Source of the DNA: a virus
Length of the DNA stretch: 40,884 bases
Reading direction: 5' to 3' (one strand)
Virus genome (UHGV): UHGV-2008032
In this document: positions 1,319 through 40,884 of the stretch, in pieces
How positions within the stretch are numbered: the stretch's first letter is position 1
Layout of the letters: every line of letters starts with the position of its first letter
Notes under the pieces: model-generated
Seen by the model: only the letters and a program-made list of their open reading frames with translations
The model's database searches: none
What the model was told of the DNA's origin: nothing
Translations under genes and position numbers: made by a program

Positions 1319-2199
1319 TGGCAACAAATAACTTTAAAGCGTTCGCGCTTGATCCTAACGCTAACGTCATGTCACAGGCAGACTGGGAAGCGCTTCCGGC
1401 GCTGCTGTCTGGTTTTACTGCCGGGAAGGCCTCCAGTGCGCAGGTTAACAAGGCGTTGCGGCAGAGCAGTACCATGGCAGCTGTTATCGCGCAATTCATG
1501 GCTGATAAAACAGGACAGGATGTACTGGATAATGGTAACACCAGCCAATTAGAGGCGATATTTGCCAGTGCAATCCAGGGGCGTCTAATCAATGTCCGTG
1601 TGTTTACATCATCCGGGACTTACACGCCAACCAATGGAACAAAGTCGATTATCGTCGAAGTGCAAGGAGGAGGCGGAGGTGGTGGTAATGCCAAGGCCAC
1701 TTCGTCCACCACATATACATTGACCTCATCGGGAGGGGCTGGTGGGTATGCTAAATCCAGACTTACCAATCTTGCCGCCTCTTATTCTGTAACTGTAGGA
1801 GCAGGAGGCGCGGGAGGTGTTTCTGGAGGGCAGTCAGTTTTTGGCTCTATTACATGCGGAGGAGGAGGTGCTGGCAGCCAAATAGGCGGGTCTTATACAG
1901 CATCGAGCAGTGTAGTAACACTTGGCGCATCAGGAGGCGATGCTTCGGGTGGCAATATAGTTAATGTTCCTGGTTCGAGTGCCGATCCGTCACTTTTAAT
2001 CGCTGGCGGGGCTGTGTCTGCTGTTGGTGGAAATTCAGTCATCGGTACTGGTGGGAAAGGTGCCGGTTCTTCTTCTGCTACCGGACTTCCTGGAACACTA
2101 GGCGGCGGTGGTGGTGGTGCTAATGCCGCTGGAAATACTACGTTAATTGCTGGCGGTAAAGGCGGTGACGGTATTGTTATAATTTGGGAGTTTGCATGA
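1318..2199 (+). CDS. Tail fibre protein with glycine-rich C-terminal repeats
   Basis: ATG 1318 overlaps upstream stop (TAATG); N-terminus MATNNFKAFALDPNANV...ASSAQVNKALRQ typical of fibre N-domains; C-terminus rich in GGxGG repeats; followed by Tfa. Confidence 0.6.
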   Translation: MATNNFKAFALDPNANVMSQADWEALPALLSGFTAGKASSAQVNKALRQSSTMAAVIAQFMADKTGQDVLDNGNTSQLEAIFASAIQGRLINVRVFTSSGTYTPTNGTKSIIVEVQGGGGGGGNAKATSSTTYTLTSSGGAGGYAKSRLTNLAASYSVTVGAGGAGGVSGGQSVFGSITCGGGGAGSQIGGSYTASSSVVTLGASGGDASGGNIVNVPGSSADPSLLIAGGAVSAVGGNSVIGTGGKGAGSSSATGLPGTLGGGGGGANAAGNTTLIAGGKGGDGIVIIWEFA

Positions 2200-2594
2200 T
2201 GGCTATTTACGCATTAGTTAAAGACGGCGTTGTAGAAAACACAGTCATCTGGGATGGGGGAGGTGATTTGTTTCCTGACTACCAGGCGGTTGAACTGAAC
2301 GAAAATGAAACCGCTGGTCCGGGATGGACTTATGACGGAACTGAGTTCTATCCTCCAGTTGAACCGGAAAAGAGCCATGAAGAGTTGGTGGTTGAGGCTG
2401 AGCAGCAGAAAGAAGCTTTATTGTCAGAGGCGCAGACAACGATAAGCCTTTGGCAAACTGAACTGCAACTTGGCATCATCAGCGACGAAGATAAGGCAAG
2501 TCTGATCGCGTGGGTTCAGTACATCAAAGCCCTTAAGGCGGTCGACACGTCGAAAGCTCCGGATATCACCTGGCCTGTGCCACCAGCGACTTAA
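2196..2594 (+). CDS. tfa: Tail fibre assembly chaperone (Tfa)
   Basis: ATG 2196 overlaps fibre stop; C-terminal ...LIAWVQYIKALKAVDTSKAPDITWPVPP typical of Tfa proteins. Confidence 0.7.
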   Translation: MMAIYALVKDGVVENTVIWDGGGDLFPDYQAVELNENETAGPGWTYDGTEFYPPVEPEKSHEELVVEAEQQKEALLSEAQTTISLWQTELQLGIISDEDKASLIAWVQYIKALKAVDTSKAPDITWPVPPAT

Positions 2595-2608
2595 TTTCAT
2601 TTTGGCGA

Positions 2609-2623
2609 TGTGCCATATTTGTG
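2609..2623 (+). repeat. Arm-type integrase-binding repeat TGTGCCATATTTGTG (P arm)
   Basis: Exact 15-bp direct repeat of 2827..2841; related TGTGCCATT at 2661..2669; flanks the tRNA-derived core. Confidence 0.5.
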
Positions 2624-2732
2624 TCATACGTGGTAAATCGCCTTTCACTATCTTGCGTCATGTGCCATTGAGTTATGCAATGTGAATGCGGCAATGTACA
2701 TGTAAAACAGTTAGTTAAAAGTGATTCTACTA

Positions 2733-2778
2733 ATTCGTAATGCGAAGGTCGTAGGTTCGACTCCTATTATCGGCACCA
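2733..2778 (+). other. attP-like core: 3' 46 nt of a tRNA-Thr(CGU) gene (anticodon loop through CCA), not an intact tRNA
   Basis: ATTCGTAATGCGAAGGTCGTAGGTTCGACTCCTATTATCGGCACCA folds as anticodon loop TTCGTAA, T-arm GTAGG/TTCGACT/CCTAT and acceptor 3' strand plus CCA; upstream sequence has no acceptor or D-arm; integrase stop lies 15 bp away. Confidence 0.65.
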
Positions 2779-2792
2779 CTAACCACGCGGGT

Positions 2793-3956
2793 TCACGCGA
2801 TATTCACCAGTTCAGCAAAAGCGCCTTGTGCCATATTTGTGCCATTCCCCGCCAGAAATGAGTCGATTTGCATGGCATGCTGCGTCAGGTGATTCGGTGC
2901 CAGATGGGCATAACGCTGTACCATCTCGATACTTTCCCACCCGCCCATTTCCTGTAGCGCACTGAGTGGCACGCCGGACTGTACAAGCCAGCTTGCCCAG
3001 GTGTGCCGCAGGTCATGGAAGCGGAAATTTTCTATTCCCGCCCGCCTTAACGCTGCTCGCCATGCCGTGTTAGCATCAGACCGCATTTTGCGCACTGCCT
3101 TTGTTCTCGTTCCATCCGGGCGAACGGATGATTCAGTGTGAACAAAGACCCACCGGTTATGTTTCCCCAGCTGCTCCCGCAGCACCTTACAGGCCGATTC
3201 GTTCAGGGCGACCCCAATCGCCCTTCCTGCTTTCGCGTCCTCGGGGTGAATCCACGCGACCTTCCTCTGCATATCAATTTGTGACCACTCCAGATCGGTG
3301 ATGTTCGACCTGCGCAGCCCCGTCGCCAGTGCAAAAATAACAACTGGCTTCATATGCTCGGGAAGTTCCCGGATCAGGTTCGCCGCTTCCTCTTTGGTTA
3401 GCCAGCGAATACGCTTATTTTTCGGCACCGGGCATTTGATGTTCGGCGCCTTGGCTATCCATCGCCATTCGTTGGCCGCACATCGTAACAGCGCCCGGAT
3501 GAAAGCAAGGTGCGTCGCCTTCGTCGCCAGCGACGCTGGTTTATCCTTAAATTCAGGAACCGGCTTACCTCTTCGCAGCAGGCTGTCCCGTTTCGCCTCC
3601 CAGTTCATTCGATGTTTGCGATTAACCATCGAACTCACCGCCGACAAGATCCTGTCTTCCGTGATTGCTGACAGGTCCATTCCTTTGAAGTGCATTCTCC
3701 AGAATCCGATCCGGCTTTTGTCATCGTCCAGGCTTTTCTTGTGCTGCTTTTCGTTAAGCCAGCGAACGCACGCTTCATCGAACGTTCTCGGCTTAAACTC
3801 ACCCATCTTATCAACTCGCCATGCTTCAGCTTTCAGCTGATCATAGAGCTCCTGCGCTTGCCTTTTGTCCGTTGTCCCAAGAGACCGTCTAATTCGACTT
3901 CCACCAGGCGTAACGAAGTCGCAGTGCCACGTACCGGCACGTTGTTTGATTGACAT
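2793..3956 (-). CDS. int: Tyrosine integrase
   Basis: 387 aa; N-terminal arm-binding-like domain; C-terminal HDLRHTWAS ... VQRYAHL catalytic motifs; adjacent to att core. Confidence 0.9.
2827..2841 (+). repeat. Arm-type repeat TGTGCCATATTTGTG (P' arm, inside int 3' end), tandem with TGTGCCATT
   Basis: Exact copy of 2609..2623 on the other side of the core. Confidence 0.5.
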
Positions 3957-4180
3957 GCTTTAACCTCCTGCACATCAACCGCATTCACCGCGCTATTGTG
4001 TCTCACAGACTTAAGCGCCGCAATGCAGTCTGACTTGCAAATGCGATATGGGCTTTTAGGTTTATCTGGATTTATCTTTGCGGCCTGAAGTCGTCCACTT
4101 CGTATCCACTGCGTGATAGTGCCTTTGTCTACCTTCAGATACGATGCTGCCTCTTCACGAGTGAAGATTTCTTCTTCCAC
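3833..4180 (-). CDS. xis: Excisionase-like HTH DNA-binding protein
   Basis: GTG start at 4180 with GGAG 6 nt upstream; helix-turn-helix [25 protein letters not shown]; 3' end overlaps int start by about 120 nt. Confidence 0.5.
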
Positions 4181-4267
4181 TTGGAATCTCCATTTATTGA
4201 GTTGGTATTATTGCGGTAGGTCTGGATATCTTGAGAAATGAACAGGCCTCATCGAGTGTGAGGCGGG

Positions 4268-4612
4268 TTAGTCCTTGCGTAGCTCGCTAATTCTTCTGTA
4301 AGTCTCTGGTGCTTTGTTTCCGTGTATCTTCATTTCAGACTTCAACAGAGCAACGAGGGAATCCCATTCGTTGAGGATGCCTTTGAATGCCGGAACGCGC
4401 TTTGCAACCTTGTTGAATGAATCTCTGATTTCTGGAATCTGCTCAACAAGTGCAACGCATCGCCGAAAGTCTGCTGCGTCATGGGGAGCACCGAAGTAAT
4501 GACCATAGATATTCTTTTTCAGTCCACATGCGATTGAGGCAAGAGTTGCGCTACTGATGCCAACATCGCCAGTCGATTGCCATTTCAAAACCTTCATAGC
4601 CAAATCTGACAT
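4268..4612 (-). CDS. Hypothetical early protein
   Basis: Start placed at internal ATG 4612 with GGAGA 6 nt upstream; the longer ORF start at 4639 lies inside a terminator stem. Confidence 0.45.
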   Translation of the reverse strand: MSDLAMKVLKWQSTGDVGISSATLASIACGLKKNIYGHYFGAPHDAADFRRCVALVEQIPEIRDSFNKVAKRVPAFKGILNEWDSLVALLKSEMKIHGNKAPETYRRISELRKD

Positions 4613-40319: not shown

Positions 40320-40884
40320 ATGGCTTTGAACCTCGACACGCTGGGGCTATCGGCAACGGTAACCGCCCAGGGGATTAGTGCGCCTGATTACCAGACAATC
40401 CTCGATACACTGACCAGCTATTTCAGGCAGATTTACGGTAGTGATGCCTACCTCGAACCAGACAGCAAAGATGGGCAAATGGTCGCGCTGGTGGCTCTGG
40501 CTGTGCATGATGCTAACAATACCGCTATCGAGATCTACAACTCGTTTTCACCGACGACAGCGCAGGCCGCAGCGCTTAGCAGCAATGTGAAAATTAACGG
40601 GATCACGCGAAAAGTAGCGACAAACTCTACTGCTGACCTTCTGTTAACCGGTACGGCGGGCACGACTATCACGAATGGCTCCGCACGGGATAAAAACGGC
40701 ATTATCTGGAATTTTCCCGCGAGTGTAGCAATCGGGGTTGATGGTACTGTGCTGGTGACGGCCACATGTGCGAATAGCGGTTCGGTTGCGGCGATGGCCG
40801 GGACTATTACCACCATTAACACACCGACTCGCGGCTGGGTGTCGGTAACCAACCCTGCTGCGGCTATTGTCGGTTCACCAGCCG
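40320..40884 (+). CDS. Baseplate J-like protein, N-terminal part (3' truncated by window end)
   Basis: ATG 40320 overlaps upstream stop; 188 codons open to the last base; joins in frame with 1..641. Confidence 0.6.
   Translation, partial: MALNLDTLGLSATVTAQGISAPDYQTILDTLTSYFRQIYGSDAYLEPDSKDGQMVALVALAVHDANNTAIEIYNSFSPTTAQAAALSSNVKINGITRKVATNSTADLLLTGTAGTTITNGSARDKNGIIWNFPASVAIGVDGTVLVTATCANSGSVAAMAGTITTINTPTRGWVSVTNPAAAIVGSPA

Follow-up and report, generated by a model that had tools for sequence, protein, structure and literature searches.

A putative thrW-directed attP of the P22/SfX type, with candidate integrase arm sites, in a circularly permuted phage genome

The segment at positions 2609–2846 of the window, by which we mean the whole 40,884-nucleotide stretch of phage DNA analysed here, is very probably the attP of a temperate phage that combines a baseplate-type tail module with a lambdoid early region and integrates in the manner of lambda and P22. 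Such a site belongs to a known, textbook type found in enterobacterial temperate phages that integrate at thrW. Judged by its sequence, it would fall among the lambda-type attP sites served by a heterobivalent tyrosine integrase, within the P22/SfX subfamily and with thrW as the target. The comparisons described below thereby lend support, at the sequence level, to the attP interpretation given in the first-pass annotation, which had the site run from 2609 to 2841; the start is correct, while the end lies at 2846. The features of the region are as follows.

2184–2594, plus strand: tail-fibre assembly gene, the last late gene (Pfam Caudo_TAP, E = 6.7e-27)
2609–2617, plus strand: P1, candidate arm-type Int site TGTGCCATA, 124 bp left of the core
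2620–2628, plus strand: P2, candidate arm-type Int site TGTGTCATA, 11 bp after P1, conserved across related P arms
2661–2669, plus strand: P3, candidate arm-type Int site TGTGCCATT, 72 bp left of the core
2675–2732, plus strand: conserved block from P3 to the core, with direct repeats GCAATGTGAATG (2677–2688) and GCAATGTACATG (2691–2702)
2733–2778, plus strand: attP common core, the 3' 46 nt of the thrW tRNA-Thr(CGU), tRNA positions 31–76 through CCA
2733–2751, no strand: strand-exchange interval, core positions 1–19, from natural allele differences in two lysogens
2793–3956, minus strand: int, 387-aa tyrosine integrase of the P22/SfX subfamily (Pfam Phage_integrase PF00589, E = 1e-42)
2827–2835, plus strand: P'1, candidate arm-type Int site TGTGCCATA, 49 bp right of the core, inside the int 3' end
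2838–2846, plus strand: P'2, candidate arm-type Int site TGTGCCATT, 11 bp after P'1
3833–4180, minus strand: xis, 115-aa excisionase (recombination directionality factor; Pfam HTH_17), overlapping the int start

The tRNA core and its neighbouring genes

The core at 2733–2778 (ATTCGTAATGCGAAGGTCGTAGGTTCGACTCCTATTATCGGCACCA) is identical at 46 of 46 positions to an annotated tRNA-Thr (anticodon CGT) of E. coli 730V1, a 76-nt tRNA of which the phage core covers positions 31–76. ARAGORN detected no complete tRNA anywhere in the 40.9-kb window, so the 5' 30 nt of the tRNA are truly missing from it. The earlier claim that this segment is the 3' 46 nt of a tRNA-Thr(CGU) gene without its 5' half is therefore borne out, and the alignment to thrW-type tRNAs that had been proposed as a check gave an exact match to the thrW 3' end. 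An Rfam scan of 2500–2950 at a permissive E-value returned no tRNA match, only chance matches to mir-471, Plastid-ycf2 and a snoRNA; such a scan cannot detect a 3' tRNA fragment lying in mid-sequence, and identity to the annotated tRNA was used instead. The identical 46-bp thrW core has been published as the attP, attL and attR core of SfI, SfII, SfV, SfX and P22, and as the attP core of SfIV (PMC3636060).

To the left, the tail-fibre assembly gene, whose homologue in E. coli 730V1 is annotated as a tail fiber assembly protein, stops at 2594, leaving 14 bp to the first repeat, and marks the left limit of the non-coding P arm. Neither the open reading frame list nor Pfam revealed gtr or other cargo genes between this gene and the P arm, and the 14-bp interval leaves no room for gtr, which confirms the earlier remark that no gtr genes separate the tail fibre genes from att. 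In P22, by contrast, gtrABC lies left of attP, whereas in the window the tail-fibre assembly gene abuts the P arm. SfI, SfII, SfIV and SfV likewise carry gtrABC immediately upstream of attP (PMC3636060), while the present phage has no conversion genes there; it is thus a phage without O-antigen conversion cargo at a place where its Shigella and Salmonella relatives carry such genes.

[quoted passage not shown] The same layout is seen in P22: its int also converges on the late genes and reaches its stop 14 bp short of the core, and its xis overlaps the int start. The two integrases are equal in length (387 aa). In an ungapped alignment of 385 residues, the window Int shares 65% identity with P22 Int, while its identity to mEpX2 Int is 64%; its sequence shows the motifs LRRSN, HDLRH and RYAH. 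Xis is 84% identical to the mEpX2 excisionase, with the first 79 residues identical, and 44% identical to P22 Xis.

Candidate arm sites and the integrase N-terminus

The 15-mer TGTGCCATATTTGTG occurs exactly twice in the 40.9 kb, at 2609–2623 and 2827–2841, against a chance expectation of 0.08 even when two mismatches are allowed; both its coordinates and its sequence had been given correctly in the first-pass annotation. Each copy represents two adjacent 9-bp sites with a spacing of 11 bp. Altogether, five 9-mers of the form TGTG(C/T)CAT(A/T) are found on the same strand at offsets of −124, −113, −72, +49 and +60 from the core. The strict form TGTGCCATW has five matches in the whole 40.9 kb, where 0.78 are expected, and four of these five fall within 2609–2846; the remaining 9-mer near the core, TGTGTCATA at 2620, is one base off this consensus. 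The inventory made earlier was accurate as far as it went, since TGTGCCATT is indeed present at both 2661 and 2838, but it had missed the degenerate copy at 2620. The right-hand repeats lie inside the int 3' end, as had been noted, and P'1 and P'2 together encode, on the opposite strand, the Int residues NGTNMAQ. The first seven bases of P1 are kept in 28 unique related P arms, and P'1 is kept in every close Int relative.

These repeats are supported as candidate Int arm sites by their position, number and orientation, which resemble those of P22- and SfX-type attP sites, and by the covariation between repeat and Int N-terminus. In both P22 and the window, five same-strand repeats are arranged as two tandem pairs with 11 bp spacing plus a single site. 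The P22 offsets of −125, −114, −60, +49 and +60 are essentially like those of the window save for P3. The P22 repeats, among them P1 TGGGACAAA, P2 TGGGACATA (about −114) and P3 TGGGACGTG (−60), are reportedly the Int arm sites footprinted by Smith-Mungo et al. in 1994. The motifs themselves differ, with TGGGACA in P22 and TGTG(C/T)CAT in the window.

A closer match is provided by the SfX-type module of Shigella phage SfX and the coliphages mEpX2, HK542, HK75, HK446 and mEp213, in which attP is annotated as 'similar to thrW tRNA'. The core is the same, and the arm motifs (TGTGCCGTA / TGTGACATA / TGTGCCATC / TGTGCCGTA / TGTGCCATT) are nearly identical to those of the window at matching offsets, which in mEpX2 are −123, −112, −71, +49 and +60. 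In mEpX2 and HK542, TGTGCCGTA occupies the P1 position and TGTGCCATC serves as P3 at −71/−72; the P2 equivalent of mEpX2 is TGTGACATA at about −112 to −114, and P'1 of HK542 also lies at +49. The virion modules are different, as the window encodes baseplate J, DUF2612 and tail fibre proteins whereas the SfX-type phages have an HK97-like siphovirus module.

Among approximately 110 relatives, integrases with WHCDF or WYCDF N-termini are accompanied by tandem repeats of the TGTGCC/TGTGTC type and those with WYAS, WYGS or WYAD by TGGGAC, and this pairing holds whichever tRNA is targeted. In line with the SfX-like arm motif, Int residues 1–50 are 78% identical to SfX-type Int and 60% identical to P22 Int. 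The remainder of the protein is only 54–68% identical to SfX-type Int, so that the window Int is a separate lineage or a mosaic. The covariation offers a rule by which arm-site specificity could be predicted from the Int N-terminus (WHCDF-type for TGTGCC, WYAS/WYGS-type for TGGGAC), and the uncoupling of arm specificity from the targeted tRNA could help to choose or engineer integrases.

It is very unlikely that the TGTGCCAT repeats are something other than arm sites, be it chance occurrences, by-products of coding sequence or sites for Xis or a regulator of int transcription. P'1 and P'2 do lie within coding sequence, and Pfam detected no arm-binding family in Int at E ≤ 0.001, reporting the catalytic domain alone. 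On the minus strand, a weak resemblance to a promoter at 2627–2599 also overlaps P1 and P2; a promoter and terminator scan of 2300–4400 gave counts near the shuffled expectation and nothing convincing in the att region. However, four exact TGTGCCATW 9-mers and a one-base variant fall within 240 bp, on both arms and at the offsets of P22's own repeats. Moreover, the tandem repeat is kept family-wide in an Int C-terminal tail that is otherwise poorly conserved (33–37% identity), and its sequence varies together with the Int N-terminus, which fits a constraint at the DNA rather than the protein level. The Xis sites of lambda are confined to one arm, whereas the repeats in the window are present on both.

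Among the 28 unique relatives, no part of the P arm is better conserved than the block between P3 and the core (2675–2732). Its elements GTGAATGCGG and AACAGnTAGTTA are shared with mEpX2, which also has the same first 79 residues of Xis, and the block is a candidate region for binding by Xis and/or DNA-bending proteins.

Lysogen junctions and the crossover interval

Lysogens show the site divided precisely at 2733. The attL side consists of the thrW 5' half, the 46-mer, the P' arm and int, and the attR side of a second 46-mer preceded by the P arm and the tail-fibre flank. E. coli 730V1 carries an intact tRNA at attL and, some 42 kb distant, the 46-bp duplicate at attR, with the right and left flanks of the window on the corresponding att sides. 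At 23 IMG/VR prophage loci, the thrW 5' half (29–30 of 30 bases) runs directly into the 46-mer, followed by the P' arm and the same integrase; at approximately 30 further IMG/VR loci, the P arm leads into the 46-mer, beyond which lies host or island DNA of unrelated sequence. The intact tRNA and the 46-bp duplicate that the first-pass annotation had anticipated at prophage ends were thus found in 730V1, and the core is likewise present at both prophage ends in the two lysogens discussed below. Lysogens of the Sf phages have attL and attR, the two halves of the site, beside proA (PMC3636060), and proA adjoins attL here as well. For annotation, these junctions define the exact prophage ends, with attL/attR boundaries at 2733 and 2778, and thrW as the target.

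Natural allele differences locate the crossover within the core. In two lysogens, Trabulsiella guamensis and IMG genome 2811995317, the attL copy of the core has the phage alleles at positions 20, 34 (and 38) and the attR copy has the host alleles; the Trabulsiella genome is a draft in which the prophage ends are on different contigs. This places the exchange to the left of core position 20, that is, within the first 19 bp of the core (2733–2751). The anticodon loop TTCGTAA (2734–2740) is the likeliest candidate for the 7-bp overlap region, by analogy with the 'anticodon-centred' class of tRNA att sites, in which the identity block extends from the anticodon stem-loop to the 3' end and crossover occurs in the loop (PMC4383910). 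Here, the identity block begins at tRNA position 31, and the exchange interval at core positions 1–19 includes the loop at positions 2–8. The GenBank record of P22-pbi annotates a 'core' at positions 8–30 of the 46-mer; read as 8+7+8 bp, this would put the overlap at positions 16–22, in conflict with the anticodon loop, but the tolerated heterology at core position 20 argues against that reading.

E. coli EcPF16, which has a variant core at attL and its next core copy, a canonical one, 12.3 kb away, was rejected as a crossover marker; an arm of P22 type (TGGGACA) stands in front of the second core, which therefore belongs to another element or a deletion hybrid. The T20G/A34C core variant was also rejected as a phage-specific marker, as it is found in attL, attR, attP and apparently native thrW contexts.

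Combined, these features would fit a scheme in which the catalytic and core-binding domains of Int bind the 46-bp core, which matches the 3' part of host thrW exactly, while the N-terminal domain would bind the five arm sites. The P arm supplies three of these and the P' arm two, which lie within the last codons of int itself. The folded attP complex would then recombine with thrW. In the integrated state, the 5' 30 nt of host thrW and the phage 46-mer make a complete tRNA-Thr(CGU) at attL, followed by the P' arm and int, and attR consists of the P arm and the displaced host 46-mer. Excision would be the reverse reaction, helped by the adjacent SfX-type Xis.

The IHF consensus and relation to phage Omnitron

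There are two minor departures from P22, namely a mosaic integrase and the lack of an IHF consensus beside the core. The consensus WATCAANNNNTTR (at most one mismatch) is absent from −180 to +110 in the window and in contig L094, in a scan that covered the consensus only; real IHF sites can deviate from it. Each of P22, mEpX2 and HK542 has a perfect copy of the consensus at +5, and the spacer between core and P'1 in the window is unrelated to that of the SfX-type phages, without their IHF consensus AATCAATAAGTTA. The bending step may therefore differ between this attP and its relatives.

That the site is a decayed att remnant of a phage no longer able to integrate is nevertheless highly improbable. 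The absence of the IHF H' consensus that relatives possess would agree with decay, but int and xis are intact and the core matches thrW without a mismatch. In addition, an Int of 92–100% identity with the same P' arm is found at thrW in E. coli, Citrobacter, Trabulsiella, Enterobacter, Kosakonia, Dryocola and Silvania, where the differing host flanks indicate repeated recent integrations. The IHF consensus is missing across this whole Int/attP clade, yet the clade is widely integrated, and P22 Int can recombine without IHF (PMC7581858).

A functional attP being the preferred reading, a more speculative proposal, to which we give a rather low probability, is that the clade arose as a natural chimera. 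A distinct core-binding and catalytic body would have been combined with an arm-binding domain and Xis of SfX type, the IHF site beside the core would have been lost, and the P' arm would be folded without IHF or by another bending factor or intrinsic curvature. If true, this would represent a compact, host-factor-independent thrW integration module across many Enterobacteriaceae genera. The current understanding of site-specific recombination is unchanged by the present site.

A close relative is Citrobacter phage Omnitron (CP115737.1), which is 96% identical to window positions 2609–4073, covering the P arm, core, P' arm and int, and 89% identical in the baseplate region. The window represents an entire phage genome, circularly permuted and close to that of Omnitron, and the site is therefore a true attP. 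A tandem-prophage junction at thrW, in which the attR of one element would abut the attL-side arm and int of the next, is ruled out for practical purposes by this circular-permutation comparison: such arrays are common at thrW (in 730V1 and L128 the attR core gives way directly to a P' arm of P22 type with another integrase, and in EcPF16 a window-type attL is paired with a P22-type attR arm), but here the last and first bases of the window are contiguous inside a baseplate J gene of circular Omnitron, as expected of one permuted 40.9-kb genome, Omnitron and contig L094 have the same P–core–P' junction, both arms carry the same TGTGCC motif, and the window contains neither host DNA nor a complete tRNA.

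The P arm sites of Omnitron (TGTGTCATT, TGTGTCACA and TGTGCCATC) differ slightly from those of the window. The Omnitron record is unannotated, and its circular sequence has been opened inside the att core.

The attP core and its junctions in lysogens

The segment 2609–2846 of the window is a typical attP of the thrW-integrating P22/SfX phages: its core is known from the literature, its layout conforms to that of the family, and its Int belongs to a lineage not individually characterised. The core, ATTCGTAATGCGAAGGTCGTAGGTTCGACTCCTATTATCGGCACCA at 2733–2778, is identical to positions 31–76 of the annotated 76-nt tRNA-Thr (anticodon CGT) adjoining proA in E. coli 730V1. The first-pass annotation had assigned this 46-mer to the 3′ end of a thrW-type tRNA-Thr(CGU) gene lacking its 5′ half, and both points hold, as the alignment gave full identity and ARAGORN found no complete tRNA in the whole window. 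The same 46 bases are printed as the attP, attL and attR core of SfI, and the core is stated to be identical in SfI, SfII, SfV, SfX and P22 (PMC3636060). P22-pbi, mEpX2 and HK542 also contain it, annotated there as attP.

At thrW of E. coli 730V1 lies a prophage some 42 kb long. Its proA-side end consists of the 5′ 30 nt of thrW, the 46-mer and then the right-hand sequence of the window into int, with 100% identity to the right flank over the 70 bases shown. At the distal end, the left flank of the window (tail-fibre assembly gene and P arm) is followed by a second 46-mer and unrelated DNA, so that the intact tRNA and the 46-bp duplicate expected in a lysogen are both present. The thrW 5′ half (29–30 of 30 bases) is likewise fused to the core and P′ arm in 23 of 80 IMG/VR loci of Int relatives, these 23 being the ones long enough to show it, and their upstream host flanks differ. 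Together, these junctions support the proposal that integration rebuilds the tRNA. About 30 more loci from two pattern scans have a P arm of the window type, then the 46-mer, then diverse host or island DNA. In Trabulsiella, Enterobacter, Kosakonia, Dryocola and Silvania, an Int of 92–100% identity adjoins tRNA-Thr(CGU), and such an Int is present in E. coli and Citrobacter too.

Candidate arm-type sites and the integrase

The 15-mer TGTGCCATATTTGTG occurs at 2609–2623 and 2827–2841, on either side of the core as first described, and nowhere else in the window even at ≤2 mismatches (shuffle expectation 0.08). Each copy is a tandem pair of 9-bp sites at 11-bp spacing, about one helical turn. 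For TGTGCCATW, the 40.9 kb hold five matches where 0.78 would be expected, and all but one fall between 2609 and 2846; relaxing one base to TGTGYCATW adds TGTGTCATA at 2620. From these matches the repeats resolve into five 9-bp sites, supported as candidate Int arm-type sites, with the short copies noted earlier at 2661 and 2838 both reading TGTGCCATT.

Candidate arm-type sites (offset from the core) and neighbouring genes
2609, + strand, P1, TGTGCCATA, −124
2620, + strand, P2, TGTGTCATA, −113
2661, + strand, P3, TGTGCCATT, −72
2827, + strand, P′1, TGTGCCATA, +49
2838, + strand, P′2, TGTGCCATT, +60
ends 2594, tail-fibre assembly gene (Caudo_TAP), left flank of the att site
2793–3956, − strand, int, 387-aa tyrosine integrase
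3833–4180, xis, 115-aa HTH excisionase, overlapping the int start

Corresponding sites in related phages, P1 to P′2
mEpX2 offsets: −123, −112, −71, +49, +60
HK542 offsets: −124, −113, −72, +49, +60
P22 offsets: −125, −114, −60, +49, +60
mEpX2 and HK542 motifs: TGTGCCGTA, TGTGACATA, TGTGCCATC, TGTGCCGTA, TGTGCCATT
P22 motifs: TGGGACAAA, TGGGACATA, TGGGACGTG, TGGGACATA, TGGGACAGA

All five offsets equal those of HK542, and only the P-arm sites are shifted, by 1 bp, in mEpX2. P22 shares P1 and P2 within 1 bp and P′1 and P′2 exactly, whereas its P3 lies at −60 instead of −72. The same layout, three P-arm and two P′-arm Int arm-type sites, was reportedly described for P22 attP by Smith-Mungo, Chan and Landy in 1994. 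A sixth, weaker copy, TGTGCCACC at 2576–2584 (offset −157), falls within the terminal part of the tail-fibre assembly gene, without clear conservation among related P arms. No gene separates the end of that gene (2594) from the first repeat (2609), in line with the noted absence of gtr genes between the tail fibre genes and att.

P′1 and P′2 fall within the last codons of int, confirming the earlier placement of the right-hand repeat, and are read as NGTNMAQ (VPNMSH in P22). Since the Int tail outside this spot is only 33–37% conserved, the constraint at P′1 and P′2 would act on the DNA. Between P3 and the core, 2675–2732 is the best-conserved P-arm stretch among relatives, with GTGAATGCGG and AACAGnTAGTTA common to the window and mEpX2, and is likely a region for Xis and bending proteins.

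The sole notable departure from known members is the missing IHF consensus. P22, mEpX2 and HK542 have a perfect match to WATCAANNNNTTR 5 bp right of the core (+5), whereas neither the window nor the metagenomic contig L094 has one at ≤1 mismatch between −180 and +110. As P22 Int is able to recombine without IHF (PMC7581858), this is no argument against function. The 48-bp spacer between core and P′1 (2779–2826) holds, instead of the IHF consensus, the near-palindrome CACGCGGGTTCACGCG, which is GC-rich and doubles as the int stop region.

In lambda-family integrases, the arm-binding domain comprises the N-terminal ~60 residues (PMC2629481; PMC2951348). Residues 1–50 of the window Int are 78% identical to the SfX-type Int versus 60% to P22 Int, while the catalytic region is nearer P22 (75%) than the SfX type (68%). 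Xis is SfX-type (84% identical), its first 79 residues being 100% identical to mEpX2 Xis. This mEpX2-like Xis start and SfX-like Int N-terminus, set against an Int remainder only 54–68% identical to the mEpX2/SfX type, suggest past recombination with a breakpoint close to the xis/int overlap (3833–3956).

We surveyed about 110 Int relatives from the 80 IMG/VR loci and 80 species genomes (L142–L221). N-termini of the types TWHCDF, WHCHF and WYCDF pair with TGTGCC, TGTGTC or (A/T)GTG(C/A)C, and WYASF, WYGSY and WYADI with TGGGAC, and the same pairing is seen at tRNA-Thr(CGU), Thr(UGU), Arg(UCU), Lys(CUU) and Met(CAU) targets; the window Int obeys this pattern, with SfX-like N-terminus and arm motif. 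In about half of the species genomes, 14–15 bp separate the int stop from the tRNA end; tandem 8-mers at 11-bp spacing within the int 3′ end, commonest ~41–42 nt in, are likewise kept in about half. Most others show a truncated int, a locus ending before the tRNA, or no repeat at ≤1 mismatch. The layout of stop codon, 14–15 bp and tRNA end occurs at at least five tRNA genes (Thr-CGU, Thr-UGU, Arg-UCU, Lys-CUU, Met-CAU), and the main arm-motif classes number only two. Two classes across at least five targets argue that arm and target specificity evolve independently.

Position of strand exchange

The thrW core varies naturally: T20G together with A34C (window 2752 and 2766) turns T-stem pair 50:64 from U-A to G-C, a compensatory change (loci L006, L016, L017, L020, L062, L066 and L110–L127). 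Because this variant turns up at what seem to be native thrW genes as well as in attL, attR and attP, hosts and phages each carry either allele. Two lysogens were informative for crossover mapping. In IMG genome 2811995317 both ends lie on one 87-kb contig: G20/C34 precede a window-type P′ arm at attL, and at attR a window-type P arm leads into T20/A34. In Trabulsiella guamensis ATCC 49490, attL (L127) has a host 5′ half with G5, then G20, C34 and T38, while attR (L136) has T20, A34 and C38, the last being the host allele as it partners host G5. The rebuilt Trabulsiella tRNA is chimeric, with a host G5–phage U68 wobble replacing native G5-C68 and 50:64 now G-C.

As attL is phage-derived from core position 20 rightwards, these alleles place strand exchange within positions 1–19 (window 2733–2751), heterology at position 20 being tolerated. 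The interval is compatible with the class of tRNA att sites termed anticodon-centred (PMC4383910), and we infer that the overlap region is the anticodon loop TTCGTAA (2734–2740). The P22-pbi record annotates a 23-bp 'core' at positions 8–30, which may be read as an overlap at 16–22; the exchange interval argues against this reading.

Tandem elements at thrW

Tandem elements are frequent at thrW, and we therefore examined whether the window flanks derive from two different tandem prophages. This was rejected, since the joined last and first 350 bases (40535–40884 and 1–350) align contiguously, at 89%, in the baseplate J gene of circular Citrobacter phage Omnitron. Omnitron also shares the P arm-core-P′ arm-int junction (96% identity over 2609–4073), and metagenomic contig L094/L035 likewise carries the P-core-P′ junction. 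By these alignments, the window represents one circularly permuted complete phage genome, cut inside a baseplate J-like gene, with 2609–2846 as its attP. In its tail module (baseplate J, DUF2612, glycine-rich fibre, Caudo_TAP) this genome is similar to Omnitron, SEN34 and Mulock, and it has an early region of lambdoid type (HK620, Sf6, HK022 and mEpX2 at 93–97%).

Tandem arrays at thrW occur in 730V1 (L008, 1574–2706) and IMG genome 2811995317 (L128), where the window-type attR core runs straight into a P22-type P′ arm (TGGGACAAATTTGGGACC), with a second integrase of the tyrosine type behind it. E. coli EcPF16 (L089, NZ_CP054224.1 3555000–3604000) has a ~12-kb prophage remnant with a window-type attL and int and a P22-type attR arm, suggesting that tandem prophages at thrW were fused by deletion or recombination. 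Beyond this remnant lies a heat-resistance island (clpK, yfdX, kefB-GI).
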